In this document: piece after piece, positions 3,470 to 31,326 of the stretch
Layout of the letters: every line of letters begins with the position of its first letter
How positions within the stretch are numbered: position 1 is the stretch's first letter
Assembly: GCA_031291955.1 (NCBI GenBank)
Contig: JARLIA010000005.1
Coordinates: 74,034 to 138,033 of the forward strand
From: Minisyncoccota bacterium
GTDB taxonomy: Bacteria; Patescibacteriota; Minisyncoccia; Moranbacterales; UBA2206
Length of the DNA: 64,000 bases
Reading direction: 5' to 3'
Made by a program: the position numbers and the translations under genes
Notes under the pieces: model-generated
Seen by the model: only the letters and a program-made list of their open reading frames with translations
Databases searched by the model: none
What the model was told of the DNA's origin: nothing

Positions 3470-3492
3470 CTCGGAATCATGGAGCGTGGAAC

Positions 3493-12665: not shown

Positions 12666-12668
12666 ACA

Positions 12669-12740: not shown

Positions 12741-12748
12741 CTAACCTT

Positions 12749-17180: not shown

Positions 17181-17208
17181 AGAATGGTAGCAAAGCCAAA
17201 GATAAAAG

Positions 17209-17457: not shown

Positions 17458-17506
17458 GATTTAATTATAGCACAAGTCGTGGAACGCAAAACACGAAAGC
17501 GAAAAC

Positions 17507-17534
17507 TTGACGAGGATGGCGGTAGTGTTATAAT
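17507..17534 (+). promoter_or_regulatory. sigma-70-type promoter (TTGACG, 16-nt spacer, TGT-TATAAT extended -10)
   Basis: Direct reading. Positioned to drive the 17554 ORF and uvrB. Confidence 0.65.
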
Positions 17535-17553
17535 AACATGCGATTTTAATCTT

Positions 17554-17838
17554 ATGGAATTCCATAACATTAAAAACGAAGCCGGTTCTAATGGTTTTAT
17601 TCTCTCATCTTCGCGCTGGATAAAAAAGAATCCGAAACTGGCCGGGAATGTTCGCGACTGCGCGGATGTGACGCAATTGGTGTGCTTAGCTAATCTTGAA
17701 AATCTTAACGCCGAATATATCCGCGCCGGATTGCCGCAAAAAGAGCGATTGCTAAACCTGAACCAAAGCGCCATTTCCCAAATGAAATCGTTGGCGGACA
17801 GTCCGGGAATCAGGAAGTTGGAAAACAAAAAATTTTGA
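17554..17838 (+). CDS. hypothetical protein (94 aa), possible HTH near the C-terminus
   Basis: First good ATG after the predicted promoter. The LNLNQSAISQMK segment resembles an XRE-type recognition helix. The track version starts at a GTG inside a repeat (17479). Confidence 0.4.
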   Translation: MEFHNIKNEAGSNGFILSSSRWIKKNPKLAGNVRDCADVTQLVCLANLENLNAEYIRAGLPQKERLLNLNQSAISQMKSLADSPGIRKLENKKF

Positions 17839-17845
17839 CAAGTTT

Positions 17846-20068
17846 ATGGAAAACAAATTCAAAATATCCTCCAAATTCAAGCCCGAAGGCGATCAGCCGC
17901 AGGCGATTGAAAAATTGACCGCGGGGCTTGAGGCTGGAAAAAAGTTCCAGACGCTTTTGGGCGTGACGGGGTCGGGGAAGACTTTTACCATTGCCAACGT
18001 CATTGAAAATATCCAAAAACCGACTTTGGTCATTGCGCCCAACAAGACTTTGGCGGCGCAACTGGCGCAGGAATTTCGGACTTTCTTTCCCAAAAGCGCG
18101 GTGGAATATTTCGTTTCCTATTATGATTATTATCAGCCGGAAGCCTACATCGCTTCCTCCGACACATACATCGAAAAGGAATCCCAGATCAACGACGAGA
18201 TCGACCGGCTTCGCCACGCGGCCACCGCGGCGCTCATGAGTCGCCGCGATGTCATCATTTGCGCTTCGGTGTCGTGTATCTACGGTTTGGGCAGCCCGGA
18301 ATATTATCGGAATATTACGCTGGAATTGGCGGTGGAGGACGGTTATTCGCAGGTTCGGGCGTCCACGCCCGAACCGCATAGTCCTGGTAAAACAAAATTA
18401 TCAGTCAAATCTGAATCGAAAATTTCCGCAGATAATAAAAAATTACCAGAAATGGCAGGTTCAATCGGGACGATTGAACCTGCAAAAAAAAATAATAGGG
18501 ACGAGATTGTAAAAAAATTGATCGACATGCAATATAATCGGAGCGATGTTTTGGCGCGGGGGAAATTCCGGCTGACCGGGAATACTCTGGAAATTATGCC
18601 GCCCGGACGGGAAATTGTAACGAGGATTGAAATGGAAGGGGGCAGTATTAAAAAAATATTCGAGTACGATTTTCTTACCGGCGAGGAACTGGGAAAGCTG
18701 GAAAAAGCGGTCATCTATCCAGCCAAACATTTCGTGGTGCCCGAACCGGTGATGGAAGGCGCTTTGGAAAAAATTCAAAAAGAAATGGAAGAGCAAGTGG
18801 AATTTTTCAAGCGTCAGGGAAAGATTCTGGAAGCGGAAAGGATTTCCCGTCGGACGCGCCAGGACATTGAAATGATGAGGGAAATCGGCTACTGCAATGG
18901 AATTGAAAACTATTCCCGCTTTCTCACTGAACGCCAGCCCGGTGAACCCCCCTACACTTTGATCGATTATTTTCCCGACGATTTTCTCATGGTGATTGAC
19001 GAATCGCATGTGACCGTGCCGCAACTCAACGGAATGTATAACGGCGACCACGCCCGGAAAGTCTCACTGATCGACAACGGCTTCCGCCTGCCTTCGGCTT
19101 TTGATAACCGCCCGCTTAAATTTCCGGAGTTCGAGAAAAAAATAAACCAGCTGATTTTCACGTCGGCGACACCGGCAAAATATGAAATGGAAAAATCAAA
19201 AATAGACCCCCTCTCCCGTAATCGGGAGAGGGTTGGGGAGAGGGCAACGCGGAACTCGGCGCCCTCTCTGTCGCGAGTACGCGACATCTCTCCCGAGTAC
19301 GGGGGAGAGGGAAATATTGTGGAACAAATTATTAGGCCGACCGGACTGATTGATCCAGAGCTGGAAATCAAGCCGACCAGAGGACAGGTGAAAGATGTGA
19401 CGGAGGAGATCAAAAAAATAATCGCCCGGAAGGAGCGGGTGCTTATCACCACGCTGACTAAAAAAATGGCCGAAGACTTGTCGGATTTCTTGAAAGAGAG
19501 CGAAGTGAAAGCTGAATATCTCCATTCCGGCGTGGACACTTTGGACCGGGTGCGGATTTTGGAACAATTGCGCCGGGGAAAATTTGATGTTCTGGTCGGA
19601 GTAAATTTGCTGCGGGAAGGGCTCGATCTTCCCGAAGTTTCTTTGGTGGCGATTCTCGACGCGGACAAAGAAGGATTTTTGCGGAGCGAAACGTCGCTCA
19701 TCCAAACCATCGGCCGCGCCGCGCGGAATGTCAAAGGAAAAGTTATTCTCTACGCCGACACCATTACCGGTTCGATGAAACGAGCTATCGACGAGACAAA
19801 CCGTCGCCGGGCAATCCAGACGGAATATAACAAAAAACATCGTATCACTCCAAAAACCATCAAGAAGAAAATCCAGTCGATCGTCGACCATGAAATCAAA
19901 CCTCAGGTGACGCGCGACTTTTCCCAATTGGAATCATTGGAGGATATGGCCGGCTACATTAAACAACGCGAGCGCGAAATGAAAGACGCGGCCCGGAATT
20001 TGGAATTTGAAAAAGCGGCGATCATCCGGGACGAGATAAGTGAGTTGAGGAAGCTGCAGATAAAATAG
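17846..20068 (+). CDS. uvrB: excinuclease ABC subunit B (740 aa, with two in-frame insertions)
   Basis: Walker A GVTGSGKT, helicase motifs, EQIIRPTGL, and C-terminal UVR domain EFEKAAIIRDEISELRKL. Confidence 0.95.
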   Translation: MENKFKISSKFKPEGDQPQAIEKLTAGLEAGKKFQTLLGVTGSGKTFTIANVIENIQKPTLVIAPNKTLAAQLAQEFRTFFPKSAVEYFVSYYDYYQPEAYIASSDTYIEKESQINDEIDRLRHAATAALMSRRDVIICASVSCIYGLGSPEYYRNITLELAVEDGYSQVRASTPEPHSPGKTKLSVKSESKISADNKKLPEMAGSIGTIEPAKKNNRDEIVKKLIDMQYNRSDVLARGKFRLTGNTLEIMPPGREIVTRIEMEGGSIKKIFEYDFLTGEELGKLEKAVIYPAKHFVVPEPVMEGALEKIQKEMEEQVEFFKRQGKILEAERISRRTRQDIEMMREIGYCNGIENYSRFLTERQPGEPPYTLIDYFPDDFLMVIDESHVTVPQLNGMYNGDHARKVSLIDNGFRLPSAFDNRPLKFPEFEKKINQLIFTSATPAKYEMEKSKIDPLSRNRERVGERATRNSAPSLSRVRDISPEYGGEGNIVEQIIRPTGLIDPELEIKPTRGQVKDVTEEIKKIIARKERVLITTLTKKMAEDLSDFLKESEVKAEYLHSGVDTLDRVRILEQLRRGKFDVLVGVNLLREGLDLPEVSLVAILDADKEGFLRSETSLIQTIGRAARNVKGKVILYADTITGSMKRAIDETNRRRAIQTEYNKKHRITPKTIKKKIQSIVDHEIKPQVTRDFSQLESLEDMAGYIKQREREMKDAARNLEFEKAAIIRDEISELRKLQIK
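18352..18483 (+). repeat. in-frame palindromic module 1 inside uvrB
   Basis: GGTTCGGGCG-TCCA-CGCCCGAACC (18352-18375) and GCAGGTTCAATCG-GGA-CGATTGAACCTGC (18455-18483) flank an A-rich word region. Confidence 0.85.
19209..19309 (+). repeat. in-frame palindromic module 2 inside uvrB (four consecutive hairpins)
   Basis: CCCTCTCCCG-TAAT-CGGGAGAGGG; GAGAGGGC-N15-GCCCTCTC; GTCGCG-AGTA-CGCGAC; CTCTCCCG-AGTA-CGGGGGAGAG. Confidence 0.85.
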
Positions 20069-20075
20069 TGAAAAA

Positions 20076-20087
20076 AGTTATCCACAG
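20076..20087 (+). promoter_or_regulatory. 12-mer AGTTATCCACAG containing a perfect DnaA-box consensus TTATCCACA
   Basis: Direct reading. 8 nt after the uvrB stop and 8 nt upstream of a -35 element. Confidence 0.6.
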
Positions 20088-20095
20088 GAGGGCGC

Positions 20096-20123
20096 TTGCT
20101 CATTCTTGTCGGAGTTCTATAAT
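20096..20123 (+). promoter_or_regulatory. promoter (TTGCTC, 16-nt spacer, TATAAT)
   Basis: Direct reading. Preceded by GGCGCTTGC. Confidence 0.55.
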
Positions 20124-20219
20124 TGAAACAGGCAAGGTTTGGAAACAAAGATACAATTAATGTTTCCGCGTATGAAATGCTATTTGGCTGGAAAATTAAA
20201 TGGCATTGCAATCATAATG

Positions 20220-20243
20220 AACACGTTTTAGGCGTGTTTTTTT
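20220..20243 (+). terminator. small rho-independent terminator
   Basis: AACACG-TTTTAGG-CGTGTT followed by TTTTT. Confidence 0.5.
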
Positions 20244-20259
20244 GTTCCCCGAAAACCCC

Positions 20260-20288
20260 TTGCAATTTTTCTCGAAACGTGCTATAGT
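20260..20288 (+). promoter_or_regulatory. promoter (TTGCAA, 17-nt spacer, TATAGT)
   Basis: Direct reading. Confidence 0.6.
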
Positions 20289-20294
20289 CGGCCG

Positions 20295-20615
20295 TTAGGA
20301 TAGGAAGATGGTTCTTTCAAAACTTGGTGCGTTTCAATTCTTAAATTAAACTTAGCTGTCTCACTAAAGACAATATGTATGGATGTTATTTTTAGCGAGG
20401 CAGTTAAGTTCTCAATATAAATTTTGCTCGCAGGAGCCACTTGAGCGAAGCACTCGTGGCATTTATCCGAAAGGATTTATACCATGCGCTCGGGAAAGGC
20501 CACTTCTGGGAAGCACTCGCGGCGGAAATCTCACCGTGCCCTAAAGGAGAGAAAAATTTATCTCTGCCAAGCCTCCGGGAAAGAAAGACATGTCTTTCTT
20601 TCCCATCCTCATTTT
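20295..20615 (+). ncRNA. candidate structured RNA or long leader (about 320 nt), class unknown
   Basis: Delimited by the 20260 promoter and the perfect 14-bp palindrome GGGAAAGAAAGACA/TGTCTTTCTTTCCC (20577-20604) plus a T tract. Contains two related 25-nt hairpin units (20436-20460, 20499-20523). No convincing ORF. Confidence 0.35.
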
Positions 20616-20677
20616 TGTTTGATTATACGGAAAAAGCAGTTATGCAGTTATAAAGTTTATTAGGAAAGGAGTTTGCC

Positions 20678-20890
20678 ATGTACGCTGCAAATGCGATGAG
20701 TGAGAGTCTGGTTTTGGCGGCAGTAACACTGGCGCCTCAGCCTGAGATGGCAGCAGTTCAGGGGATGTTCTTGTGTCGCCGCTGCGATGATTGTGGCGTT
20801 AGAGCTGATTTAAAATCAGCGGAGGGCAGCAGAGTAGTTCTTCAATGCCCCCGGTGTCAGAGGGAGTACACCTTTTTCAGTAGGGAGTAA
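20678..20890 (+). CDS. small zinc-ribbon protein (70 aa)
   Basis: Strong RBS GGAAAGGAG 7 nt upstream of the ATG. CRRCDDCG...CPRCQ, two CxxC pairs. Confidence 0.5.
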   Translation: MYAANAMSESLVLAAVTLAPQPEMAAVQGMFLCRRCDDCGVRADLKSAEGSRVVLQCPRCQREYTFFSRE

Positions 20891-20970
20891 TAAAAATGAA
20901 AACATTGAGGATTGAGACCGTGCCGGTAATCGGGACTTGTCAAAAGCATTGCTGACGAGTCCCTTTAAAT

Positions 20971-20999
20971 TTGTCTAAAAATAAATACTAATGTAGAAT
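20971..20999 (+). promoter_or_regulatory. promoter (TTGTCT, 17-nt spacer, TAGAAT)
   Basis: Direct reading, upstream of the 21028 gene. Confidence 0.55.
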
Positions 21000-21027
21000 A
21001 TGGCAGTAACTAATAAGAATAAAATAA

Positions 21028-22065
21028 ATGACGAACATGACGAAAAAAATAATCCTCATCGTGGTGATTGTGATTGTCGCGCTGGGGCTGGCGGGGTATA
21101 AATTTGCCAAGCCGGATTTTTCCAAGATTTTTGCCAAAAGCCAGACGACTAAGGTTCTGACGCCAGACCAGGCTAAAGTCAAAGCCCTGGATTATATCGA
21201 CAATAATCTGGTGCAAAAGGGCACAAAAGTAAGCGTGAAAAACATTGCTGAAGCGAACGGTCTTTATAAATTGGACCTGGATGTCAGCGGCCAGACCATT
21301 ACAGCCTATATGACCGAGGACGGTTCGCAGTTTTTTCCGAACGCTATGGACATGAATGCCGCGCCGGCCAAGCCAGCGGCGGCCGATCAGCAGCAAGCCG
21401 CCCAACAGCCGATTCCCAAAACAGACACGCCAAGCGTTCAACTTTTTGTGATGAGCTATTGTCCTTATGGCACGCAGATAGAAAAAGGGATTTTGCCGGC
21501 TCTTTCCGCTTTGGGAAGCAGTGTGAAATTTAATCTTGAATTTGTCGATTATTCCATGCACAACGATGCTTCGACCGGCGATCAGAAAGAACTCAACGAA
21601 AATTTGCGTCAGTATTGCATCCAGAAGCTCCAGCCGGATAAATTGGGAACTTACTTGAATTGCTTTTTGCAAAAAGGCCAGGGCACGGAAAGCGCTTGTA
21701 TGACCCAAGCCGGTGTGGACGCGGCGCCGGTCGCGACTTGTATGACAGCGACCGACAACCAATACAGCGTCAGTAAGAACTTTAAAGATCAAAGCACCTA
21801 CAATGGTCAGTTCCCGACGTTCAAAGTCGACGAAGCGGATAATCAGAAATATAACGTTCAAGGCTCGCCGACTTTGGTGATCAATGGAGTGGTTGATCAG
21901 GCTGGAAACCGTGATTCGGCTTCGCTGCTTAAGGATATTTGTTCAGCTTTCAATACAGCACCGGCCGCTTGCAGTACCGCTAAACTTTCTTCCACCGCGC
22001 CGTCGCCGGGATTCGGCACCGGTACGGACACGAGCGGTTCAAGCGCTAGTTGCGCGACGAAATAG
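21028..22065 (+). CDS. membrane-anchored secreted thioredoxin-fold-like protein
   Basis: N-terminal TM anchor. VQLFVMSYCPYGTQ resembles a thioredoxin/glutaredoxin active-site region but has only one Cys in the motif. Low-complexity S/T/G tail. Confidence 0.5.
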   Translation: MTNMTKKIILIVVIVIVALGLAGYKFAKPDFSKIFAKSQTTKVLTPDQAKVKALDYIDNNLVQKGTKVSVKNIAEANGLYKLDLDVSGQTITAYMTEDGSQFFPNAMDMNAAPAKPAAADQQQAAQQPIPKTDTPSVQLFVMSYCPYGTQIEKGILPALSALGSSVKFNLEFVDYSMHNDASTGDQKELNENLRQYCIQKLQPDKLGTYLNCFLQKGQGTESACMTQAGVDAAPVATCMTATDNQYSVSKNFKDQSTYNGQFPTFKVDEADNQKYNVQGSPTLVINGVVDQAGNRDSASLLKDICSAFNTAPAACSTAKLSSTAPSPGFGTGTDTSGSSASCATK

Positions 22066-22094
22066 AGTCGCGAAAGCAGAGCGAATGGTTAGCG

Positions 22095-22128
22095 AATAAG
22101 AGCGAATCCTTAAAGATTCGCTCTTATT
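22095..22128 (+). terminator. rho-independent terminator embedded in a GCGAAT/ATTCGC word palindrome (22081-22150)
   Basis: AATAAGAGCGAATC-CTTAAA-GATTCGCTCTTATT 14-bp perfect stem. Confidence 0.7.
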
Positions 22129-22162
22129 ATTATTCGCTTTAATTCGCTCATCATTTGCGATT

Positions 22163-22174
22163 AGTTATCCACAG
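22163..22174 (+). promoter_or_regulatory. 12-mer AGTTATCCACAG (perfect DnaA-box consensus inside)
   Basis: Direct reading. 7 nt upstream of the lexA -35 element, same arrangement as at 20076. Confidence 0.6.
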
Positions 22175-22181
22175 CCGGCGC

Positions 22182-22210
22182 TTGCGATGATATTTAATCA
22201 GTGCTAGAAT
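22182..22210 (+). promoter_or_regulatory. lexA promoter (TTGCGA, 17-nt spacer, TAGAAT) with overlapping inverted repeat CAGTG-N9-CACTG (22199-22217)
   Basis: Direct reading. Confidence 0.55.
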
Positions 22211-22241
22211 AACACTGTAATAAACTTAGATAATAAAAAAT

Positions 22242-22919
22242 ATGCAAAACACACAATCGCTTACCGGAAAGCAAAAGAACCTGCTCGAAACGATCCGGGA
22301 ATATGTTGACCAGCGAAATGAAAATCCGACCAGTTATCGCCTGCATAAATACTTGGAAGCGCAGGGCGTGAGAGACAGTTTGAAGTCTGTCATGCAAGTC
22401 ATTGAAGCTTTGGAGAAAAAAGATCTGGTGAAACGTGACGGCGACAAGCGGCTCTATCTCATTGAGAACGGCAATTATGCCAATCTGAAAAACATTTTTT
22501 CCGTGCCGGTCTATGGCTTGGCCTCTTGCGGCGAAGCCTTGGCCTACGCCGAGGACAACGTGGATGGGTTTTTGCAAATCTCCAAAGCCTTGTTTCGCGG
22601 GGCCGACTCGGCCAAACTTTTCGCCGTCAAAACTTTGGGTGATTCGATGGACAAAGATGGCATAAACGATGGCGATTACGTTATCTTTGAAAAATACGAA
22701 TACGACAAAGGAGAGGAGCTGGAAGGGAAAATCGTGGTGGCGGTCATCAATGGAATGGCGACGATCAAGAGATATAAAAAAGTGAGCGACGAAATCATCG
22801 GTCTTTTCCCGCGCTCGAAAAACACCGTCCACCAGCCGATCTTCATCCATTCTTCCGACTCGATCCTGGTCGCCGGGATTTTCCGGAAAGTGCTGCCGGT
22901 GAAATACGTAAGTTTGTAG
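22242..22919 (+). CDS. lexA: LexA-like repressor (wHTH plus S24 peptidase domain)
   Basis: GDSMDKDGINDGDYVIF (Ser nucleophile) and ATIKRY (Lys). Putative cleavage region VYGLASCGEALAY. Confidence 0.88.
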   Translation: MQNTQSLTGKQKNLLETIREYVDQRNENPTSYRLHKYLEAQGVRDSLKSVMQVIEALEKKDLVKRDGDKRLYLIENGNYANLKNIFSVPVYGLASCGEALAYAEDNVDGFLQISKALFRGADSAKLFAVKTLGDSMDKDGINDGDYVIFEKYEYDKGEELEGKIVVAVINGMATIKRYKKVSDEIIGLFPRSKNTVHQPIFIHSSDSILVAGIFRKVLPVKYVSL

Positions 22920-23014
22920 GCTTGCTTAAAATATTTTTCCGTACTACCCTGTATTAGATAAAAGTAAATACTAAGTACCCGATCTGGGGAAATTTTTGGC
23001 GTTGGGAAATTTTT

Positions 23015-26000
23015 ATGGACAAAATCATCATAAAAGGCGCGCGGGAGCATAATTTGAAGAACGTCGACTTGGAGCTGCCGCGGAATAAATTTATCGTTTT
23101 TACGGGAATTTCTGGGTCAGGGAAGTCGACCATGGCTTTTGATACTATTTTTGCCGAGGGGCAACGGCGCTATCTCGAAAGTCTTTCCAGTTACGCTCGG
23201 CAGTTTTTGGGGCAAATGAATAAGCCTGACGTGGACTATATTGAAGGTCTGTCGCCGGCCATTTCCATCGACCAGAAAGCGGCGTCCCACAATCCGCGTT
23301 CGACGGTTGGAACGGTGACGGAAATCCACGATTATTTGCGATTGCTATATGCCAAGATCGGCCGGCCACATTGTCCGATCTGCTCCCGGGAAATTACGAA
23401 GTTGTCGACAGATGAGATTGTTGATCGGATTTTGGAGATGTGCGCCGCGAAACCTCATCCGCCCCGGAGTACTGGGGCACCTTCTCCTTATAAAGGAGAA
23501 GGAGATAATGGAAGGGGCTGTTCTATCGAAATTCTATCGCCGGTGGTTCGCCAGCGGAAAGGGGAATATTCGACGATGCTGGCTGAGATGTTCCGGCGGG
23601 GGTTTTCCCGCGCTTACGTCAATGGGGAAAAATACGAACTGTCGGCCAAGATCGGAGACGAGTTGGAATTGGCCCGCTACAAAAAACATAATATTGATAT
23701 CGTGGTAGATGAGGTGGAGATATCTAGCGACAACATTTCGCGAATATTTGAAGGAGTGGAAAAGGCGCTGAAGTTGTCGGACGGACTGGTCAAGATAAGA
23801 TCCGAAATCCGAAATACGAAATCCGAAACAATGTCAAAATCAAAAATTAAAAATTCAAAACAAAACAATACGGAAATTGTTTTCAACCAAAAACTTTCTT
23901 GTCCGATCCATGAGATTGAGTTTCCGGAGTTGGAGCCGCGTTTGTTTTCTTTCAACAGTCCGTTTGGCGCTTGTCCGGCTTGCGAAGGATTGGGAACGAA
24001 AAAAGAAATCGACCCGGCGCTGGTGGCGCCGGATAAAAACAAAACGATTGCTGAGGGTGGCATCTTCCCTTGGAGCTACAAACGGAATAACTGGCAAGGG
24101 TCGGTTCTCCGGGCGGTTTGCAATCATTTCCACATCAAAGACAATGTGCGCCTCCGTGACCTTTCGGAAGATGACCTCAACATCTTAATGTTCGGCGGAC
24201 CGGATGCGACCGATATGATAGATAAGGAAGAAGCGGAAGAAATACCCGTCACTTTGAAATCAAAAACCGGTTCAAGCTGGAAATATTACATGACCTGGCG
24301 CGGAGCGGTCGGATATCTTCAAGATCGATATTTCAAGACCGATTCGGATGCGGTGCGGGCGGATATTGAAAAATATATGTCGCAAAATCCGTGTTCGGTC
24401 TGTCACGGCGCGCGTTACAAAAAAGAAGTCTTGCTGGTGACGGTCGGCGAATCCCGCCCGCAACGCTTCGCTAACGCAAGTGTTAGCTTGCGTAGCGATG
24501 CGGGCGGGAAAAATATTGTCGAAGTCTCAAATGTGTCTGTGGCTGAGACGCTTAAATTTTTCGAAAGACTGGAATTGAATAAAAATGAGCAGATCATCGC
24601 CGGGAGAATTTTGAAGGAAATTATTAATCGCCTAGGCTTTTTGGAAAACGTGGGACTGGGATATTTGACTTTGGCCAGATCCGCGGCGACACTAGCCGGC
24701 GGGGAAGCGCAACGGATCCGCTTGGCATCGCAAATCGGTTCGGGTCTCACCGGCGTTTTGTATATTTTGGACGAACCGTCGGTCGGTCTTCACTCGCGCG
24801 ACAACACTAAATTGCTCGAGACGCTTTTTCATCTGCGCGATCTGGGAAACACGCTAATCGTGGTTGAGCACGATGAAGAGACGATGCGGGAGGCCGACTA
24901 TTTGGTTGACATCGGACCGGGAGCGGGAAAATTGGGAGGTAAAATTGTGGCGCATGGCACGCCGGTAGAAGTTATTCGCGATAAAAAATCTTTAACCGCG
25001 GCATATTTGCGGGGTGACGCGAAAATAGAAATGCCGAAATTCCGCCGGCCAGTCAAGAATAAAAAAACGATTGTTGTCCGCGGCGCGCGCGAACACAATT
25101 TGAAAAACATTACCGTCGAGTTTCCTTTAAAAGTTTTGACGTGTGTGACGGGCGTGTCCGGCTCGGGGAAATCCACATTGGTAGAGGACATCCTTTATAA
25201 AGCCTTGGCGTCAAAAATCATGCGGACGCTCGACCGGCCGGGGAAACATTCGGAGATTGTCGGCACGCAATATGTTAACAAAGTGATCATGATCGACCAG
25301 TCGCCGATCGGTCGGACGCCGCGCTCCAATCCGGCGACTTATACCGGGCTCTTTACGCCGATCCGGGAATTATTTTCCCAGACCCGGGACGCCAAATCCA
25401 AGGGTTATGGTCCGGGGCGCTTTTCGTTCAACATCCGGGGCGGACGCTGTGACAACTGCCAAGGCGACGGCCAGCTTAAAATTGAGATGCAGTTCATGCC
25501 GGATGTCTATTTGCCTTGCGATGTCTGTCACGGAAAAAGATACAACAGTGAGACCTTGAAAGTGAAATACAAGGACAAAAACATTTCCGAAGTTTTGGAC
25601 ATGACGGTCAGCGAAGGGCGCGAGTTTTTTGAGAATTTTCCGGCTATTCACGACAAGCTGGCGGTTTTGGAAGACGTCGGCTTGGGCTATATCCAACTCG
25701 GGCAGTCCGCCACCACACTTTCCGGCGGGGAAGCGCAAAGGATAAAACTGGCCACGGAACTGGCAAGGAGGGCGACCGGCGACACTTTGTATATTCTGGA
25801 CGAACCGACGACTGGCCTCCATTTTGACGACATTAAAAAACTTTTGAATGTTTTGAACCGCTTGGTCGATGCCGGCAACACAGTGGTGGTGATCGAACAC
25901 AATTTGGACGTCGTCAAAACCGCCGATTGGATCATTGACTTGGGTCCGGAAGGCGGAGAAGGCGGCGGAAAAATTATCGTTACCGGTCCGCCGGAAGAAG

Positions 26001-26062
26001 TGGCGAAATATCATAAGGAAAGCTGGACGGGAAAGTATCTGAGAGATGTATTGAAAAAGTAG
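23015..26062 (+). CDS. uvrA: excinuclease ABC subunit A (1015 aa, with several in-frame insertions)
   Basis: Two ABC ATPase modules ([18 protein letters not shown]), LSGGEAQR signatures and zinc modules CxxC. Confidence 0.95.
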   Translation: MDKIIIKGAREHNLKNVDLELPRNKFIVFTGISGSGKSTMAFDTIFAEGQRRYLESLSSYARQFLGQMNKPDVDYIEGLSPAISIDQKAASHNPRSTVGTVTEIHDYLRLLYAKIGRPHCPICSREITKLSTDEIVDRILEMCAAKPHPPRSTGAPSPYKGEGDNGRGCSIEILSPVVRQRKGEYSTMLAEMFRRGFSRAYVNGEKYELSAKIGDELELARYKKHNIDIVVDEVEISSDNISRIFEGVEKALKLSDGLVKIRSEIRNTKSETMSKSKIKNSKQNNTEIVFNQKLSCPIHEIEFPELEPRLFSFNSPFGACPACEGLGTKKEIDPALVAPDKNKTIAEGGIFPWSYKRNNWQGSVLRAVCNHFHIKDNVRLRDLSEDDLNILMFGGPDATDMIDKEEAEEIPVTLKSKTGSSWKYYMTWRGAVGYLQDRYFKTDSDAVRADIEKYMSQNPCSVCHGARYKKEVLLVTVGESRPQRFANASVSLRSDAGGKNIVEVSNVSVAETLKFFERLELNKNEQIIAGRILKEIINRLGFLENVGLGYLTLARSAATLAGGEAQRIRLASQIGSGLTGVLYILDEPSVGLHSRDNTKLLETLFHLRDLGNTLIVVEHDEETMREADYLVDIGPGAGKLGGKIVAHGTPVEVIRDKKSLTAAYLRGDAKIEMPKFRRPVKNKKTIVVRGAREHNLKNITVEFPLKVLTCVTGVSGSGKSTLVEDILYKALASKIMRTLDRPGKHSEIVGTQYVNKVIMIDQSPIGRTPRSNPATYTGLFTPIRELFSQTRDAKSKGYGPGRFSFNIRGGRCDNCQGDGQLKIEMQFMPDVYLPCDVCHGKRYNSETLKVKYKDKNISEVLDMTVSEGREFFENFPAIHDKLAVLEDVGLGYIQLGQSATTLSGGEAQRIKLATELARRATGDTLYILDEPTTGLHFDDIKKLLNVLNRLVDAGNTVVVIEHNLDVVKTADWIIDLGPEGGEGGGKIIVTGPPEEVAKYHKESWTGKYLRDVLKK
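23461..23502 (+). repeat. in-frame double hairpin inside uvrA
   Basis: GCCCCGG-AGTA-CTGGGGC (23461-23478) and CCTTCTCCTT-ATA-AAGGAGAAGG (23480-23502). Confidence 0.85.
24452..24509 (+). repeat. in-frame 58-nt long hairpin inside uvrA
   Basis: Outer stem TCCCGCCCGC/GCGGGCGGGA (10 bp). Inner stem GCTA(A)CGCAAG/CTTGCGTAGC. Confidence 0.85.
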
Positions 26063-26067
26063 AAATT

Positions 26068-27327
26068 ATGACGACCATCCTCCAAAAGCTGAAAAACCTG
26101 CCTCAATCACCGGGGGTGTATATTTTCTATGATAAAAATAGAAATATTTTGTACGTGGGAAAAGCGACGTCGCTTAAAGATAGGGTTGGTTCGTATTTTC
26201 AGAATAAGATTGGGGCGGTGCGGACGATTGAGATGTATATGAATGAAGTGACGGATCTGGAGATCAAGAAAACCGACACGGTTTTGGAAGCGTATATTTT
26301 GGAACAATCTTTGATCAAAAAACTTCAGCCGAAATATAACGCGATGGGGAAAGACGATAAGTCATTTACGTACGTACTTCTTTCTAAGGAAGAATTTCCG
26401 AGATTCGCGGTGGTACGGGAAACTGATTTGGATAGTGTAAAATCATCGCCCCGTGGGGGGCAAAAATCTTTGCCCCCCACGGCGAAGGTTTATGGTCCGT
26501 ATACGTCGAAACGGCAAATTGAGGCGGCCTTGAAAATCTTACGGAAAATTTTTCCCTATCACAACCGGCCGGAACATTCGGAGTCCCGGTGTTTTGATTA
26601 TCATCTTGGGCTTTGCCCCGGACCGTATGACGGGAAGATTTCCAAAAAAGAATACGTCAAAAATATCCGGGCGATAAAAATGATCTTGGAAGGGAAGAAG
26701 AAAGGACTTATAAACCGGATGAAAAAAGAGATGGAAGAATGTTCAGACAAGGCTGAATTTGAAAAGGCGGCGGAGGTGCGGAACAGGATTTTTGCGTTGC
26801 AACACATCCAGGACGTGGCGCTGATATCTGATCATAGAGACGCAATTAATCGCGTCTCTGTGGACGACGCAATGATGCGCATCGAAGGTTATGATATTTC
26901 CAATATTTCCGGGAAATTTGCGACTGGTTCGATGGTGGTGTTTGATAATTCAGACGGTGAAATGCAGCCGAATAAATCGCAATATCGTAAATTCAAAATC
27001 AAAAATGTTGAAGGCGCCAATGACGTGGGGGCAATGGAAGAAATGCTTACCAGGAGATTTCGGAACAATTGGCCGCGGCCGAATTTGATTTTGCTCGACG
27101 GCGGAGCCGGGCATTTGAATATGGCGCGGAAAGTCCTGCGGAATCACAAAATAGAAATTCCCTTGCTGGCGGTGGCCAAAGGGCCGGCGCGGAAAAAACT
27201 GGATCTGCGAAGTTTCGGGACCGTGCCGGAACTGCCAAAAAATATCATCGAACAAGTGAGAAACGAAGCGCATCGCTTCGCGATCAGTTATCATAGGAAA
27301 TTGAGAGGTAAATCGTTCACGGATTAA
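26068..27327 (+). CDS. uvrC: excinuclease ABC subunit C, compact form (419 aa)
   Basis: GIY-YIG (GVYIFYDKNRNILYVGKA), UVR domain (AEFEKAAEVRNRIFALQ), endonuclease domain (RIEGYDISN...EAHRFAISYHR). Ends right after that motif. Confidence 0.9.
   Translation: MTTILQKLKNLPQSPGVYIFYDKNRNILYVGKATSLKDRVGSYFQNKIGAVRTIEMYMNEVTDLEIKKTDTVLEAYILEQSLIKKLQPKYNAMGKDDKSFTYVLLSKEEFPRFAVVRETDLDSVKSSPRGGQKSLPPTAKVYGPYTSKRQIEAALKILRKIFPYHNRPEHSESRCFDYHLGLCPGPYDGKISKKEYVKNIRAIKMILEGKKKGLINRMKKEMEECSDKAEFEKAAEVRNRIFALQHIQDVALISDHRDAINRVSVDDAMMRIEGYDISNISGKFATGSMVVFDNSDGEMQPNKSQYRKFKIKNVEGANDVGAMEEMLTRRFRNNWPRPNLILLDGGAGHLNMARKVLRNHKIEIPLLAVAKGPARKKLDLRSFGTVPELPKNIIEQVRNEAHRFAISYHRKLRGKSFTD
26447..26484 (+). repeat. 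in-frame hairpin inside uvrC
   Basis: CCGTGGGGGGCAAA-AATC-TTTGCCCCCCACGG, a perfect 14-bp stem (26451-26482). Confidence 0.9.
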
Positions 27328-27407
27328 GCCTTGAAGTGGCCAATGCTTTGACATCTCTTGCCAAATCCTCTACAATACATCTCTAGTAAGCAATCTTCTT
27401 TCAAACT

Positions 27408-30221
27408 ATGCCCACTCAAAAATCTTCTCCTAAAAATACTTTCTCACTGAAGGATAAAATCGTCATCCGTGGCGCGCGGGTGAATAATTTGAAGAACATC
27501 GACGTGGACATTCCGCGGGATAAATTGGTCGTAGTGACAGGTCTTTCCGGGTCGGGGAAATCTTCTTTGGCTTTTGACGTGGTCTACGCCGAAGGCAATC
27601 GGCGGTATCTGGAAGGCATGTCGAGCTACGCCCGGCAGTTTTTGGATGTTTCGGCTAAACCGGACGTGGACAAAATAGAGAATTTGAGCCCGACCATCTC
27701 AATTGATCAAAAAAGCTTGAGTCGTTCACCTCGCTCGACGGTCGGGACGCTCACGGAAATTTACGATTATTTGCGAGTGCTCTACGCCAAAGTGGGAACG
27801 CCCTATTGTCCTCATTGTCTCTTGCCGATGGGGCGCAAAAAGAACCAGGAAATTTTGGAGGAAATTTTGGTTTTGCCGGAAAATACCCAAGTGGCGGTCC
27901 TGGCTCGGATAAAAAATGAAGGTCAGAGTGTTAAGGATATTCTCAAAAACATCAGTCAGCTTGGTTATGCCCGGGCGCGGGTTGGCGGTAAAATCGTCTT
28001 GATTGCCGACGCCTTGCTTTTTCCGGAAGAAAACTTGAGCGGCAACGTCGAAATCGTGGTTGACCGGATCAATCTCAAGAAAAAAAATCCCGATCACGAA
28101 CGGATGTTGGATTCTATTGAGACTGCTTTTAAATTGGGGAAAGGTTTTATGGCGGTCGCAATCGATAATGGTGAGAGCCGGATTTATAATCAAAATTTTG
28201 TTTGCAGCAACTGCTATTTCAAAATTTCGGAAATCACGCCCAAGAATTTTTCTTTCAACAGTCCCGAAGGCGCCTGCGAACATTGCGCGGGAATGGGTAC
28301 TATCCAGGAAGTGGACGAGGATCTGATCATTCCTAACAGAAATCTCACTTTGGCCGAAGGAGCTATTATGCCGCTCGCCAAGTCCGGCGGCCGGGCTGGG
28401 TATCTCGATACTCTCACCAAGATCGGCGAGAAAGCGGGTTTTTCCGTGAATGAACCGGCGCGGAACATTTCCAAGGAAAATTTGAAAGTTATTTTTCATG
28501 GTTTTGGTGTGCCTGGTACTCCTGGTTATTTTGAGGGAGTGGTGCCGATGATTCGAAAAAAATATACCGAAGCGGCCACTCAGACGGCCCGGACCGACAT
28601 CGAAAAATATATGCTGGAAAAAGATTGTCCCGAGTGTGGAGGCAAGCGTTTGAAAAAAGAATATTTATCCGTCTTGATGAGCGGGAAATCGATCGACGAT
28701 TTGGTCCGGATGGATATCGATACTCTCATTTTATTTTTAGAAAATTTACGGACTGCCGATTTGAGTGCCGCCAAAGCGGAAATCGTGGCGCCATTGGCAA
28801 AAGAAATGATCGCCAAAGCCAAGGCGCTCAAGAACGTCGGCTTGGAATATCTGTCACTTTCCCGCCGGGCCGATTCCATTTCCGGCGGCGAAGGTCAGCG
28901 CATCCGGCTCGCAACTCAAATTGGATCGGAACTTTCCGGTATTATCTATGTTCTGGACGAACCGTCTATCGGTCTCCATTCCCGAGACAATGAAAAGTTG
29001 ATCGACACGATGGAAAAGCTGAAAGAGAACGGCAATTCTCTGATCGTGGTCGAGCATGACAAAGACATTATCGAGTGCGCCGATTGGGTGATCGACATGG
29101 GTCCCGGGGCAGGGGAGTTCGGCGGGGAAGTTATCTTTTCCGGTTCGGTGAAAAAAATGGAGAGCGTCGCGACATCCACTGCCAAGTTCCTTTCCGGCCG
29201 GGAAAAAGTAACGGTTAAGAAGAAACCGCGAACGGCATCGAAGAACTTTTTGGAAATCCTGGGTGCCGCAGAACACAATTTGAAAAATATCGACGTCCGG
29301 ATTCCACTCGGCCGTTTTGTTGCCGTCTCGGGCGTGTCCGGTTCGGGGAAATCCACTTTGGTAACCGACATTCTGGCTCGAGAGCTGGCCCGGCATTTTT
29401 GGAAGGCTAAGAAAAATCCCGGAAAGCATGATAAAATCACTGGTCTTAACCGCTTGGATAAAGTGATTAATATCGATCAATCGCCGATCGGCCGGACGCC
29501 GCGTTCCAATGCCGCCACCTACACCGGTGTCTTTTCACTTATTCGGGAACTTTTCTCCGCCACCGAAGAGGCGAAAAAACGGGGCTACGATGCCAGTCGC
29601 TTCAGTTTTAATGTCCGGGGCGGCCGTTGCGAAGATTGCCAAGGCGACGGAACAAAAAAGATCGAGATGCATCTTTTGCCGGATATGTATGTCAAATGCG
29701 AAACTTGCCAGGGAACGCGCTATAACGCCAAGACGCTTGATATTGAATATCAGGGTGCTACCGTCGCCCAGGTGCTGGATATGAGTGTTTCCTACGCGCT
29801 TCGCTTTTTCCATAAATCGCCGCTTATCGCGGCTAAACTGAAAACGCTGGAAGAAGTCGGCCTGGGCTACATCAAACTGGGACAGAGCGCCACAAATCTT
29901 TCCGGCGGAGAAGCGCAGCGGATAAAATTGGCTACCGAGCTCGCCCGGAAATCGACCGGCAAGACTTTGTATATTTTAGATGAACCGACCATCGGGTTGC
30001 ACTTTGAAGATGTGCGGAAATTGCTTCAGGTGCTGGACGCGCTGGTCGAAAAAGGCAACACTGTTCTTGTGGTGGAACATAATTTGGACGTCATCAAGAA
30101 CGCCGACTGGGTGATTGATCTCGGGCCGGAAGGCGGAAACGGGGGCGGCGAAATTGTTTACGCCGGCGAACCGAAGGGGCTGAAGAAAGCGAAGAGGAGT
30201 TGGACAGGAAAATATCTGTAA
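27408..30221 (+). CDS. uvrA: excinuclease ABC subunit A, second paralog (937 aa, no obvious insertions)
   Basis: Same domain order as 23015..26062: [23 protein letters not shown] signatures and zinc modules. Confidence 0.93.
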
Positions 30222-30360
30222 AAAATTTTCAATTTTCAATTTTCAATTTACAATCAATTTTCAATGATTCAATTTTCAATTCAGAAGACGATGCGGACTT
30301 GAAAATTGATAATTATTTGAGTTGATCATTCATTGATGATTGATTATTGTAAATTGATAA
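30222..30360. repeat. AT-rich word-stutter imperfect palindrome (TTTTCAA words), copy 1
   Basis: TTTTCAATTTTCAATTTTCAATTT at 30226-30249 is identical to 56742-56765. The right half carries complementary TTGA-type words (AAAATTGATAATT...). Confidence 0.8.
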
Positions 30361-30363
30361 TTG

Positions 30364-31326
30364 ATGACCAATGGATTATCAAAAAAAATTCTCGCTACTA
30401 TTATTTATTACGATATTTTAGATTATCCGCTCACTTCCTTTGAAGTCTGGAAGTATCTTCTGGCAGTGAACGGTGAGCAGGAATCAGTGAATAATAAAAA
30501 GGAGAAAATGAGTTTGGCTGAGGTCATGAAAGAGTTGGAAAGTGAAGACTTGCAAAAACATACTGAGGAATATCGCGGATTCTATTTTTTAAAAGGAAGA
30601 AGAGATCTTGTTGCCCAAAGACTGGAGCGGAACAAAATTTCCGAGCGGAAGCTTAAAAAAATACAGCAGACGGTTTTTTGGCTGCGAATGGCGCCGTTTG
30701 TCCGGATGGCGGCGGTCACGGGACGAGTGGCCATGAAGAACGCCACTAGAAAAAGCGATCTGGATCTTCTGATCGCGCTTAAAAACAATCGCATTTTTAC
30801 CGGGCGACTGCTGGTTACGCTTCTGGTGCATGCTTTGGGTCGGCGGCGTCATGGAAGCAAAATGACTGATCGGATCTGCCTCAACTATTTTATTACCGAT
30901 GGTTCGCTTGAAATCGGATCGCACGATATTTTTTCCGCTCACGAATATTCTTTCACCGTGCCGGTCTTTGGCGGCGAAGTTTTTCAGGAGTTTCAAAAAG
31001 AGAACAGCTGGATCGCGGAACATAAACCCGCTTTCGCGCCGGACGTGGTTTTGGGGATAAAAATTTTGGAAGATACTTCTTGGGTTAGGGCGGTCAGGGA
31101 GTTTGGGGAAAAAATATTCAACTCTGACAAACTGGAGGCGCGCCTCAAAAAATGGCAGATGGACCGGATTGTCGCTGACCCGCGGACTTATCAAAAAGGG
31201 AGCGGGGTGACGGCTGGTAGCGACGCGTTGGTTTTTCTGCCCGATCCGCAGGGACCGCGGGTTTATGAAAAATATCGTGAGAGGGTTGACGCTTTGGCGG
31301 AATCAGCTACAATATATAGTGGTTAG
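30364..31326 (+). CDS. hypothetical protein with nucleotidyltransferase-fold-like core
   Basis: GRVAMKNATRKSDLDLLI resembles the G-x-x...D-x-D NTase motif. ATG at 30364 preferred over the TTG at 30361. Confidence 0.5.
   Translation: MTNGLSKKILATIIYYDILDYPLTSFEVWKYLLAVNGEQESVNNKKEKMSLAEVMKELESEDLQKHTEEYRGFYFLKGRRDLVAQRLERNKISERKLKKIQQTVFWLRMAPFVRMAAVTGRVAMKNATRKSDLDLLIALKNNRIFTGRLLVTLLVHALGRRRHGSKMTDRICLNYFITDGSLEIGSHDIFSAHEYSFTVPVFGGEVFQEFQKENSWIAEHKPAFAPDVVLGIKILEDTSWVRAVREFGEKIFNSDKLEARLKKWQMDRIVADPRTYQKGSGVTAGSDALVFLPDPQGPRVYEKYRERVDALAESATIYSG

Follow-up and report, generated by a model that had tools for sequence, protein, structure and literature searches.

The 58-nt nested hairpin that lies within uvrA of a Moranbacteria-like bacterium, in the stretch of DNA analyzed here (64 kb in total, referred to below as the window), very probably belongs to a dispersed Patescibacteria family of short, imperfectly palindromic, non-autonomous mobile elements. 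We propose that the members of this family would be REP/RPE-like elements that encode nothing of their own. The comparison of filled with empty sites shows that this copy entered uvrA between the codons of Glu478 and Lys, adding exactly 57 nt without any duplication, and since the length of the insert is a multiple of three and its frame holds no stop codon, the gene would stay intact. The features on which this proposal draws are collected in Table 1.

Table 1. Genes, inserts, and shared tract in the window (positions are those of the window; L081 and L082 are related lineages)
Feature	Position	Strand	Remarks
uvrA (1015 aa)	23015..26062	+	PDB and Pfam matches
uvrA2, paralog, 50% identical to UvrA	27408..30221	+	None of the inserts; same-fold internal control
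Nested hairpin in uvrA, 58 nt	24452..24509		z near -7 for either strand and for RNA as well as DNA parameters
Inserted element in uvrA, 57 nt, 19 codons	24452..24508	+	Filled versus empty site, L081/L082
126-nt block (insert, 20 nt to the left, 49 nt to the right)	24432..24557	+	One mismatch to L081
Second in-frame hairpin insert, uvrA	23456..23502	+	GCCCCGGAGTACTGGGGC + CCTTCTCCTTATAAAGGAGAAGG; encodes ...PRSTGAPSPYKGEG
A-rich, non-hairpin in-frame insert, uvrA	23795..23861	+	IRSEIRNTKSETMSKSKIKNSKQ; 90% identical to an inserted segment of L081 uvrB
In-frame insert, uvrB, 147 nt	18343..18489	+	Two perfect hairpins (18352-18375, 18455-18483)
In-frame composite of GC-rich hairpins, uvrB, 105 nt	19207..19311	+	DPLSRNRERVGERATRNSAPSLSRVRDISPEYGGEG
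In-frame hairpin, uvrC	26445..26488	+	CCGTGGGGGGCAAA-AATC-TTTGCCCCCCACGG; 14-bp perfect stem
GTAG-type hairpin, uvrC	26833..26862	+	AGAGACGC-AATTAATC-GCGTCTCT; encodes RDAINRV

The sequence of the hairpin, TCCCGCCCGCAACGCTTCGCTAACGCAAGTGTTAGCTTGCGTAGCGATGCGGGCGGGA, agrees with the description in the original prediction, and the predicted nested fold is borne out: stems of 11 (outer), 6, and 7 bp, separated by an asymmetric internal loop of 5 nt and a bulge of 1 nt, respectively, and closed by a loop of 4 nt. The RNA minimum-energy fold thus has 24 pairs (11 + 6 + 7), which by our own reading are 23 Watson-Crick pairs and one G-U pair, so that the earlier estimate of about 20 Watson-Crick pairs out of 26 was too low. 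It folds at -42.5 kcal/mol, whereas 200 dinucleotide shuffles give -21.0 +/- 2.9 and none of them is equally stable (z = -7.4 with RNA parameters); z is -7.0 for the minus strand and -7.4 with DNA parameters. Among all 60-nt segments of the window (mean, -11.6; standard deviation, 4.9), this one ranks first in stability. The hairpin is real and highly non-random. The outer bracket singled out in the original prediction, GCGGGCGGGA, has exact matches in the window at the hairpin's own two arms and at no further site, and matches with one mismatch are at chance level (8 found versus 5.7 expected); the family was therefore traced via relatives. Rfam covariance models gave no match at E <= 1 across 17000-31000 on either strand, and a known structured RNA family was rejected as a candidate on this ground.

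That the hairpin was inserted in frame into uvrA, as had been claimed, is supported, with one correction to its extent. In the 90%-identical ortholog L082, the site is empty, with GGGGAA followed directly by AAAAATATT (i.e., a GAA/AAA junction), and the window carries 57 additional nucleotides with unambiguous boundaries and no target-site duplication. The final A of the 58-nt palindrome (24509) belongs to the host codon AAA, so the inserted DNA is 57 nt rather than 58. It encodes SRPQRFANASVSLRSDAGG, placed between LLVTVGE and KNIVEVSN in the loop VTVG-x/KNI. The 57-nt insert is missing from 118 of the 120 closest database UvrA orthologs, among which P0001 (92% identical) alone has it; alignment with solved UvrA structures and with 13 genome relatives also places an indel here, and the paralog UvrA2 lacks the insert. 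The same insert occupies the same site in an independent ENA assembly (L081). In the protein, it follows the CxxC pair C460/C463 and the strand 475-477, with the UvrA_DNA-bind domain (aa 333-453) upstream. The AlphaFold2 model renders residues 480-496 as coil with a pLDDT of <50, due partly to the lack of aligned homologs for those columns, and has confident strands on either side. We posit, from the preserved reading frame, that the insert would be translated, and from the model that it would be carried as a disordered 19-residue surface loop, as are Rickettsia palindromic elements (RPEs).

The termini of the element, CCCGCCCGCAACGCTTCGC...GTAGCGATGCGGGCGGG, were found again on about 25 low-GC metagenome contigs, in both orientations. 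About three quarters of the loci in the metagenome scan were chance matches in genomes of 60 to 79% GC, and these were removed by composition and by demanding full termini. The window copy is in the "A" orientation, with CCCGCCCGCAACGCTTCGC as the 5' arm and GTAGCGATGCGGGCGGG as the 3' arm (family core CCCG...CGGG, 24453-24508), and it scores 75 bits (E = 8e-14) against a covariance model of the family (R1). Genes that host copies in frame encode a TrwB/VirD4-like protein, LigT, GatB, FtsX, an aminotransferase, peptide deformylase (Def), an M50 peptidase (RseP), and likewise UvrB and UvrA; about 14 more copies lie in short open reading frames (i.e., they are intergenic), and many independent JGI, ENA, and NCBI assemblies contain family members. 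Lengths range from 45 to 72 nt, and folding energies of all members range from -31 to -48 kcal/mol. By our own tally, copy length is divisible by three in about 8 of 11 genic versus 8 of 15 intergenic copies, which gives no clear contrast between the two. The termini are invariant in 15 copies, with changes on both sides at two of 20 scored pairs. Direct comparison of the innermost stem shows GCAAG/CUUGC in the window versus GCGAG/CUCGC in most copies, and two conserved 1x1 mismatches (A.A and T.T) make the arms asymmetric, such that GTAG is found on one arm only, opposite GAAG.

Five copies lie in Moranbacteria-like uvr loci. The uvrB gene of L081 has a family copy at a site that is empty in both the window and L082, and the uvrA genes of L083 and L084 have copies at about aa 397 and aa 808, respectively. 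In L081 uvrB and in L084 uvrA, the insertion amounts to exactly the 54-nt element, set between two codons with no duplication. A second series of filled, empty, and doubled sites was found in gatB of a Nealsonbacteria-named lineage and its 76 to 81% relatives, so that empty sites are at hand for uvrA, uvrB, and gatB. Across unrelated genes on unrelated contigs, termini of 19 nt and 17 nt are identical, and the frame in which this DNA is read changes from host to host. These sequence comparisons demonstrate that it is the DNA sequence, rather than the peptide, that is maintained. The suspicion that protein constraints could not account for the hairpin, with which no cause had been named, was thus well founded: 56 of 57 nucleotides are identical between two lineages and the same termini recur in other frames, and the peptide is not conserved.

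How might a filled allele move once it exists? The insert is 56/57 identical to that of L081, compared with 84% for uvrA as a whole and a mismatch of 35% at third positions. The 57-nt segments with one or no mismatch to L081 number 70 among 2956, and all lie inside 24432-24557, the only near-identical stretch of uvrA between lineages that are 16% apart. We regard this stretch, from its sequence, as a candidate co-conversion or transfer tract, and because the insert and its short flanks are near-identical at 16% divergence, we suggest that the filled allele may spread among related lineages partly by homologous recombination. Selection acting on the nucleotide sequence, and not recent transfer, could instead explain why insert and flanks are near-identical. 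The flanks in the empty-site lineage L082 are also below average divergence (5/69 by our own count on the alignment).

The element is not alone in these genes, and all six hairpin inserts of the window lie within uvrA, uvrB, and uvrC. All five perfect coding hairpins with stems of at least 10 bp are likewise in these three genes (5/5), and the density of stable hairpins per kb is 0.71 in UvrC, 0.54 in UvrB, and 0.26 in UvrA, compared with 0.18 in other coding sequences and 0.15 in UvrA2. The second uvrA hairpin insert is common to L082 (2/47 differences), with a different hairpin there in L081, and the AlphaFold2 pLDDT is <50 at the corresponding UvrA aa 145-167. The A-rich uvrA insert is missing from UvrA2 and many orthologs and, because an inserted segment of L081 uvrB matches it at 90% identity, it is judged on its sequence to be a second, unrelated mobile insert family. 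At the site of the 147-nt uvrB insert, sister lineages have two other, unrelated hairpins; the site of the 14-bp uvrC hairpin is variable in all relatives; and the GTAG-type uvrC hairpin is represented in relatives by GTAGAGACGCGA-TTAA-TCGCGTCTCTAC. In at least 14 further lineages, the UvrA loop that holds the family copy has palindromic inserts of other, unrelated sequence, and it is filled in 17 of 121 aligned proteins (the window included), always in frame and without stops. A common origin of these loop inserts was ruled out, their sequences being unrelated between lineages. Intron-like or excised elements were ruled out as well: the six window inserts and the 17/121 loop inserts keep the frame without stop codons, and a bulge-helix-bulge motif or intron-like structure was not found at the inserts.

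Is it possible that the structure itself is what selection has favored? A cis-acting mRNA or DNA structure in uvrA (e.g., a stability or RNase III element, a site of translational pausing, or a cruciform bound by protein) would tune expression of the nucleotide excision repair genes in this lexA-linked cluster. The extreme structure, nucleotide conservation between two lineages far above the gene average, a sole difference to L081 that changes the G-U pair to G-C, the occurrence of strong coding hairpins in uvrA, uvrB, and uvrC and of none in uvrA2, and the location of lexA between uvrB and uvrA would all suit such a role. We nevertheless consider it unlikely given that close orthologs, including one that is 90% identical, almost all lack the insert (118/120), that the same element turns up, in either orientation, between genes as well as within unrelated housekeeping genes, that the outer stem is invariant rather than covarying, that no Rfam family matches, and that unrelated sequences occupy the same site in different lineages. 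Even less likely is an adaptive role for the 19 residues as a new functional UvrA loop, to which the palindromic DNA would be incidental. The frame is kept, the loop adjoins the zinc module and the DNA-binding domain, and M. tuberculosis UvrA has extra residues in this same loop; set against this, the reading frame depends on the host (PARNAS..RSDAGG, PPASLRE..RSVAGG, ARIATR.., and, in the window, SRPQRF..), so there is no conserved peptide, the segment is predicted to be disordered, and most orthologs as well as UvrA2 do without it.

Formation of the palindrome de novo at its site, through template switching or hairpin-primed synthesis while DNA is replicated or repaired, would account for the missing target-site duplication without any mobility, and some family members do appear nested or duplicated (L089, L129, and L200). 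Yet neither arm copies flanking uvrA sequence, and the identical 19-nt and 17-nt termini of the dispersed copies contradict such an origin, which we regard as highly improbable. That a chimeric junction or fold-back read produced the hairpin as an artefact of sequencing or assembly has a negligible probability: fold-back artefacts can yield palindromes, but the open reading frame is intact, the insert recurs at its site in the separately assembled L081, and the family extends across assemblies from three sources. Points counted against the reading of the hairpin as a copy of a dispersed mobile family include that model R1 finds a single family copy in the 64-kb window and that a Pfam scan of 40 window open reading frames revealed no transposase of any kind.

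From the absence of duplication and the conserved A.A and T.T mismatches, we speculate, with low confidence, that primary insertion may follow a single-strand hairpin pathway, for example one that relies on an IS200/RAYT-type transposase (HUH/Y1). At four dated insertions, the 5' flanks (GAAT, TTTC, GGGC, and ACCG) have no target motif in common, which does not fit IS200/IS605-type targeting. Searches by tblastn with RAYT and IS200 TnpA queries gave no match in the Moranbacteria-like loci; a match outside Moranbacteria (L037) was confirmed as Y1_Tnp and is flanked by a different, unrelated hairpin. A scan of IMG/VR viral contigs with the family's degenerate pattern recovered no low-GC family member, and hence no evidence for a phage vector; the matches there were to one different, high-GC hairpin family only, on contigs mostly of 13 to 15 kb.

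Do palindromic inserts home into nucleotide excision repair genes, or are they retained there, beyond mere tolerance? The reuse of inter-codon sites by different families, the near-identical tract, and the spared same-fold paralog give grounds for asking, and we regard a positive answer as rather doubtful. In one version, site-directed insertion would be followed by co-conversion, as with homing elements; in another, altered excision repair would favor the single-strand hairpin transposition of the elements or raise the mutability of the host.

Patescibacteria are a very large, largely uncultured bacterial group with tiny genomes that are usually described as repeat-poor. Phenomena of this kind are already known (Rickettsia RPEs and intragenic REPs in uvr genes), and what appears to be new is the family, together with the phylum in which it occurs; the range of protein-coding palindromes now takes in Patescibacteria in addition to Rickettsia and a few bacteria rich in REPs. 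Several element families insert repeatedly into core genes here, and it follows that some of the many lineage-specific protein "insertions" may represent selfish DNA and not adaptation. Such inserts give rise to spurious low-complexity peptide motifs (e.g., PARNAS..RSDAGG, PASTRGD..STRGG, and PPHQ..WCGG) and can mislead alignment, phylogeny, and structure prediction of their host proteins. The window also repeats, in a distant phylum, the unexplained uvrABC bias of intragenic palindromes, and it provides material for its study: dated filled and empty alleles, hotspots at which different families occupy the same nucleotide position, and a spared same-fold paralog. If homing or retention did operate, it would answer mechanistically the question raised by Di Nocera et al. 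2013 (PMC3733652), namely, why intragenic REPs occupy repair genes across phyla.

Among known systems, the IS200/IS605 palindrome-associated and RAYT/REP (HUH Y1) elements share with this family the lack of target-site duplication and an imperfect hairpin whose conserved mismatches tell the strands apart, and Y1_Tnp genes flanked by hairpins do occur in other Patescibacteria (L037). They differ in that no conserved 4- to 5-nt target lies 5' of the insertions, the uvrA element consists of a single hairpin and not of two subterminal hairpins, and the hairpin flanking the L037 Y1 gene has another sequence. A classical MITE (derived from a DDE transposon) was rejected, there being no duplicated bases at the junctions in uvrA, L081 uvrB, or L084 uvrA. 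The GC clusters of yeast mitochondria are also coding palindromes in organelle genes and have a different origin. Nematomorpha mitochondria likewise have hairpin-forming inverted repeats in frame in conserved protein genes, tolerated as extra peptide, but these are organellar and of other origin, being long, perfect, gene-internal duplications and not a dispersed family (PMC6649704).

Closer comparisons are provided by two bacterial systems. Intragenic REPs tagged with GTAG or CGTC have been described in replication and repair genes (Di Nocera, De Gregorio & Rocco 2013, BMC Genomics 14:522; PMC3733652) as short GC-rich stem-loops that encode 20 to 30 residues. In several phyla, they lie inside uvrA, uvrB, uvrC, uvrD, recBCD, polA, and dnaE2; often a species has no other REP-tagged coding sequences, and in some cases one gene contains two of the repeats. 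The concentration of coding hairpins in uvrA, uvrB, and uvrC of the window matches that description, and some neighboring inserts are GTAG-tagged (e.g., GTAGAGACGCGATTAATCGCGTCTCTAC in uvrC). In contrast, the uvrA element has no terminal GTAG or CGTC (its GTAG is internal), it is longer than a single REP, the 40 window reading frames scanned include no RAYT gene, and Patescibacteria are not among the phyla named in those portions of Di Nocera et al. 2013 that we draw on here. Rickettsia palindromic elements, RPE-1 to RPE-10 (Ogata et al. 2000, 2002; Claverie & Ogata 2003, as cited in PMC3733652 and PMC10969869), are, as portrayed in these sources, dispersed palindromic repeats located in frame in many unrelated housekeeping genes whose reading frames remain intact; they are also intergenic, are thought to occupy surface loops, and reside in a small, reduced genome. 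Our family shows the same combination of a palindromic unit, dispersal, and in-frame residence in intact, unrelated genes with empty sites in relatives. It differs in its host phylum (Patescibacteria rather than Rickettsia), in its length (45 to 72 nt versus roughly 100 to 150 nt for RPE-1), and in its own termini, CCCGCC...GGCGGG, RPEs being compared here by description. Given that host and length differ, we suggest by analogy that the family works like RPEs rather than being a member of them.

The DNA at 24452-24509, read from the window as TCCCGCCCGCAACGCTTCGCTAACGCAAGTGTTAGCTTGCGTAGCGATGCGGGCGGGA, forms, as RNA, a nested hairpin with helices of 11, 6 and 7 pairs (23 Watson-Crick and one G-U) and lies within uvrA, where it encodes SRPQRFANASVSLRSDAGG. 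The original prediction of such a hairpin in this gene is confirmed by the fold, the comparison with shuffled sequences and the identity of the ORF; its claim of strong pairing stands, although its count of about 20 of some 26 stem pairs was too low. The folding energy is -42.5 kcal/mol, compared with -21.0 +/- 2.9 for 200 dinucleotide-preserving shuffles (z = -7.4), none of which reaches the observed stability, and the result is the same on the complementary strand (z = -7.0) and with DNA parameters (z = -7.4). No other 60-nt window of the 64 kb is as stable (scan mean -11.6, sd 4.9), and an Rfam search returned nothing similar to the hairpin.

That this hairpin is an in-frame insertion, as had also been claimed, is borne out by alignment to orthologs and to the paralog, UvrA2, which lacks the segment along with most of the 120 orthologs. 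Solved UvrA structures show a gap at this position, the loop being a few residues longer in M. tuberculosis UvrA, and all 13 relatives (Moranbacteria and other Patescibacteria, species genomes, at most 75% identical) read VTVGx/KNI (a slash marks a junction) without the 19-residue segment. Of the 120 database proteins nearest to this UvrA (73-92% identical), P0001 (92%) alone has the same 19 residues, while P0002 (90%) reads VTVGE/KNIVEVSN, with no insert. At the DNA level, the contig of P0002 (L082) has the empty site GGGGAA/AAAAATATT, and the window and the contig of P0001 (L081) have 57 nt more at that point. The boundaries are fixed, with no 1-base shift possible and no duplicated bases, and the palindrome's 58th base, an A, belongs to the host gene, so the inserted DNA is 57 nt long.

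Between the window and L081, uvrA differs at 15.8% of positions (35% at third codon positions) and the insert at 1 of 57, a change that turns the G-U pair into G-C. Of 2956 windows of 57 nt, the 70 that have no more than one mismatch all fall inside a block at 24432-24557, comprising the insert with 20 nt and 49 nt of flank. This block looks, from its sequence, like a recent conversion or transfer tract; alternatively, strong local constraint may account for it.

Within UvrA, the insert comes after the zinc knuckle C460-x2-C463 and a strand at 475-477, with the DNA-binding (insertion) domain (aa 333-453) upstream. In an AlphaFold2 model (40 orthologs in the alignment; mean pLDDT 72), residues 480-496 are coil with pLDDT < 50 between confident flanking elements, and segments 145-167 and 266-285, also window-specific, are likewise low-confidence coil with confident flanks. 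The model fits a tolerated surface loop, the low pLDDT being partly expected for columns without aligned homologs. Every one of the six hairpin inserts of the window keeps the frame with no stop codons, as do the inserts at this UvrA loop in 17 of 121 aligned proteins (window counted), which points to their translation, not their removal.

Coordinates of features in the window and in contigs of other lineages (L-handles)
Feature	Locus	Position	Strand	Description
uvrA, hairpin host ORF	window	23015..26062	+	full-length match to solved UvrA structures; Pfam UvrA_inter, UvrA_DNA-bind
uvrA2	window	27408-30221		paralog, 50% identical to UvrA; without the 19-residue insert
Nucleotide excision repair and SOS cluster	window	17846-30221		compact; kept in L081, L082, L084
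lexA	window	22242-22919		Peptidase_S24
RNase J paralogs, two in tandem	window	3855-5654; 5692-7515	-	
uvrB site	window	18343-18489		147-nt double hairpin
uvrB site	L081	about 1050-1100		GTAGGGGGAAAAAATTTTTTGCCCCTAC
uvrB site	L082	about 3430-3475		20-bp perfect palindrome TCCTAAGGTTGAACCTTTGG-AAT-CCAAAGGTTCAACCTTAGGA
Relative of L082 uvrB palindrome	L083	15243-15286		in uvrC
GTAG...CTAC uvrC hairpin	window; L003; L005; L010; L008; L084	26833-26862; 14232; 3436; 3742; 3412; 14725		GTAGAGACGCGA-TTAA-TCGCGTCTCTAC, encodes RDAINRVST
PASTRGD..STRGG palindrome	L084; L008; L081	11408-11452; 802-846 and 2104-2145; 499-542		CCCGCCTCGACTCGCGGAGA...GTCGACGCGAGGCGGG, 42-45 nt
MITE-like element in uvrA	L008	about 1534-1641		about 108 nt; 18-bp perfect terminal inverted repeats CCCCCACACCAACTAAAC...GTTTAGTTGGTGTGGGGG; A-rich interior
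A-rich 67-nt segment	window (uvrA); L081 (uvrB)	23795-23861; 1844-1910		TCCGAAA + AAATTCAAAA repeats; encodes IRSEIRNTKSETMSKSKIKNSKQ
AT-rich inverted repeats, intergenic	window	56739-56858; 30220-30364; 12661-12742		TTTCAATTTTCAA-like units
82-aa ORF upstream of uvrB	window	17209-17457	-	contains ...KPARNAAS...HSAAGG...
Counterpart of 82-aa ORF	L081	279-386		weak match to family model, 17 bits
Y1_Tnp (IS200/RAYT-like) gene	L037; L012	5642-6313; about 5786-6151		223 aa; Saccharibacteria-named contigs; about 4 kb upstream of uvrA

The uvrA insert is one member of a dispersed family. A second copy, in uvrB of L081 (DYF/PARNASPVSAGSRSDAGG/PGDFL, a site empty in the window and L082), has 19 nt (CCCGCCCGCAACGCTTCGC) and 15 nt (AGCGATGCGGGCGGG) in common with the window hairpin, and uvrA has a copy in L083 (about aa 397) and another in L084 (about aa 808). 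A metagenome scan using the hairpin's two arms with a variable gap, from which chance matches in high-GC contigs were discarded, left about 25 members on contigs of 32-55% GC. Family copies occur in both orientations and follow the consensus CCCGCCCGCAACGCTTCGC-[variable inner hairpin]-GTAGCGATGCGGGCGGG, with unequal arms that contain two conserved 1x1 mismatches (A.A, T.T) and GTAG in one arm, GAAG in the other. Nine scan copies are in frame in long ORFs (a TrwB/VirD4-like ATPase, LigT, GatB, FtsX, a class I/II aminotransferase, peptide deformylase, an M50 (RseP-type) peptidase, UvrA and one unknown protein); about 14, in short ORFs, represent intergenic DNA. Because the reading frame of the element varies among hosts (PARNAS..RSDAGG, PPASLRE..RSVAGG, ARIATR..RSVAGG; in the window, SRPQRF for the 5' arm and RSDAGG for the 3' arm), the conserved entity is the DNA, not a peptide. 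The GatB host (L137, one copy) is 100% identical to an NCBI protein named Candidatus Nealsonbacteria, and in relatives 76-81% identical the site is empty in three proteins and holds a doubled copy in two. The doubled or nested GatB copy in P0243 and P0245 (Nealsonbacteria-like), PARIATRAGSPARLRSVAGRPARIATRSVAGG, indicates that a new element can land inside or beside one already present. Searched with a covariance model of the family, the window yields this single copy and the Moranbacteria-like loci yield uvr copies alone.

Possible older copies also exist. At the corresponding uvrB site of L001 (DYF/../PRDFL), a shorter AANNASHGNGG stands in place of the PARNASPVSAGSRSDAGG of L081; perhaps this is an eroded copy, in which case inserts would decay by internal deletion. 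The 82-aa ORF upstream of uvrB could be an old copy of the window's element that has since expanded. Separately, about 20 IMG/VR viral contigs (L205-L233, 62-70% GC, most 13-15 kb) have one conserved hairpin in common, GCGCCCGCATCGCT-(about 20 nt)-AGCGATGCGGGCGC, retrieved only through its fit to the search pattern, a fit that need not mean kinship with the Patescibacteria family.

Hairpins of this kind concentrate in the repair genes. All five perfect coding hairpins in the window with a stem of at least 10 bp lie in uvrB, uvrA or uvrC, which together make up about 15% of coding DNA; the window's remaining stems of that length are all A/T-flanked and mostly outside long ORFs (terminator-like). 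Across 16 related loci, picked around uvrA so that the densities are rough, very stable 44-nt windows number 0.71 per kb in UvrC, 0.54 in UvrB, 0.26 in UvrA, 0.18 in other coding DNA and 0.15 in UvrA2, whose three matches are ordinary GC-rich coding stretches, two at one conserved position near the 3' end. The cluster runs uvrB, two unknown ORFs, lexA, uvrA, a short uvrC (419 aa) and uvrA2.

Within these genes, different elements use the same sites. The UvrA loop holds other inserts in 14 or more further lineages of the 120-ortholog set (PASTRGDDRSSTRGG, ARNASRSEAGGG, GPPRVDERSPSRVEA, SHLTPNPSPSKGE and 27-39 residue elements with ends PPHQ and WCGG), and in L084 a 45-nt palindrome, CCCGCCTCGAC...GTCGACGCGAGGCGGG, occupies the exact nucleotide position of the window's insert, directly 5' of AAAAATAT. 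At GG/GRC (about aa 808), the L084-type palindromes and the window's family use one junction in different lineages. Although the window, L081 and L082 are equally distant from one another (about 80% nucleotide identity), each has its own, unrelated hairpin at a single uvrB site.

The PASTRGD..STRGG palindrome, whose termini are similar to the CCCGCC / GGCGGG of the window's family, occupies at least six different positions in UvrA across lineages, and the UvrA of L008 has two copies. Translated in frame, the MITE-like element gives LPPHQ...(K/N-rich)...WCGG; it occupies two UvrA sites across lineages (P0022, P0035, P0054, P0083, P0099). The GTAG...CTAC hairpin sits at one uvrC site common to several Moranbacteria-like lineages, and in L008 its stem differs on both sides (GTAGGGAACGCA/TGCGTTCCCTAC). 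The A-rich, non-hairpin segment, 90% identical between window uvrA and uvrB of the sister lineage, represents a second mobile in-frame insert family, unrelated to the hairpins; the intergenic TTTCAATTTTCAA-like units are similar to it.

How might the element move? It shows precise inter-codon insertion without duplication, presence or absence among close relatives, dispersal to unrelated genes, invariant termini and asymmetric arms. It is probably a non-autonomous mobile sequence whose intragenic copies persist only if length and frame are harmless, and homologous recombination may offer filled alleles a further route of spread. The window encodes no transposase genes. An HUH/Y1 pathway is attractive because of the missing duplication, the hairpin with its strand-marking mismatches and the hairpin-flanked Y1_Tnp of other Patescibacteria, but the four dated insertions have no common 5' target motif and no cognate gene is linked to the element, both of which count against this pathway, and we regard it as rather unlikely. 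The L037 Y1_Tnp gene is bracketed on both sides by one hairpin, CGCACCCCTGGGGTGCGATTATGGT, and has >1400 homologs, several with Patescibacteria, Berkelbacteria or Omnitrophica as source name.

In total, the uvrA finding is real and was correctly read at the outset, and its cause is probably a new family of a known kind, a selfish palindromic element. The wider pattern, in which several families share hotspots, uvrABC are favoured while the paralog is spared and one tract looks like conversion, merits attention and leaves this classification unchanged. A full-text literature search, of incomplete coverage, returned no reports of such elements in Patescibacteria. The classic case is that of the Rickettsia palindromic elements, palindromic repeats in frame in many housekeeping genes (PMC10969869). 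Di Nocera et al. (2013) describe GTAG- and CGTC-tagged REPs within genes of several phyla, with uvrA, uvrB, uvrC, uvrD, recBCD, polA and dnaE2 among the hosts, often a species' sole REP-tagged coding sequences and at times two per gene, a pattern for which its authors had no explanation (PMC3733652); the window presents the same pattern in Patescibacteria, and the GTAG tag is also on some neighbouring inserts, such as the uvrC hairpin. However, we reject membership in a REP family as defined, and a classical MITE, because the element exceeds a single REP in length, has no terminal GTAG/CGTC tag and made no duplication. By analogy, the window's element would work like a Rickettsia palindromic element or an intragenic REP.
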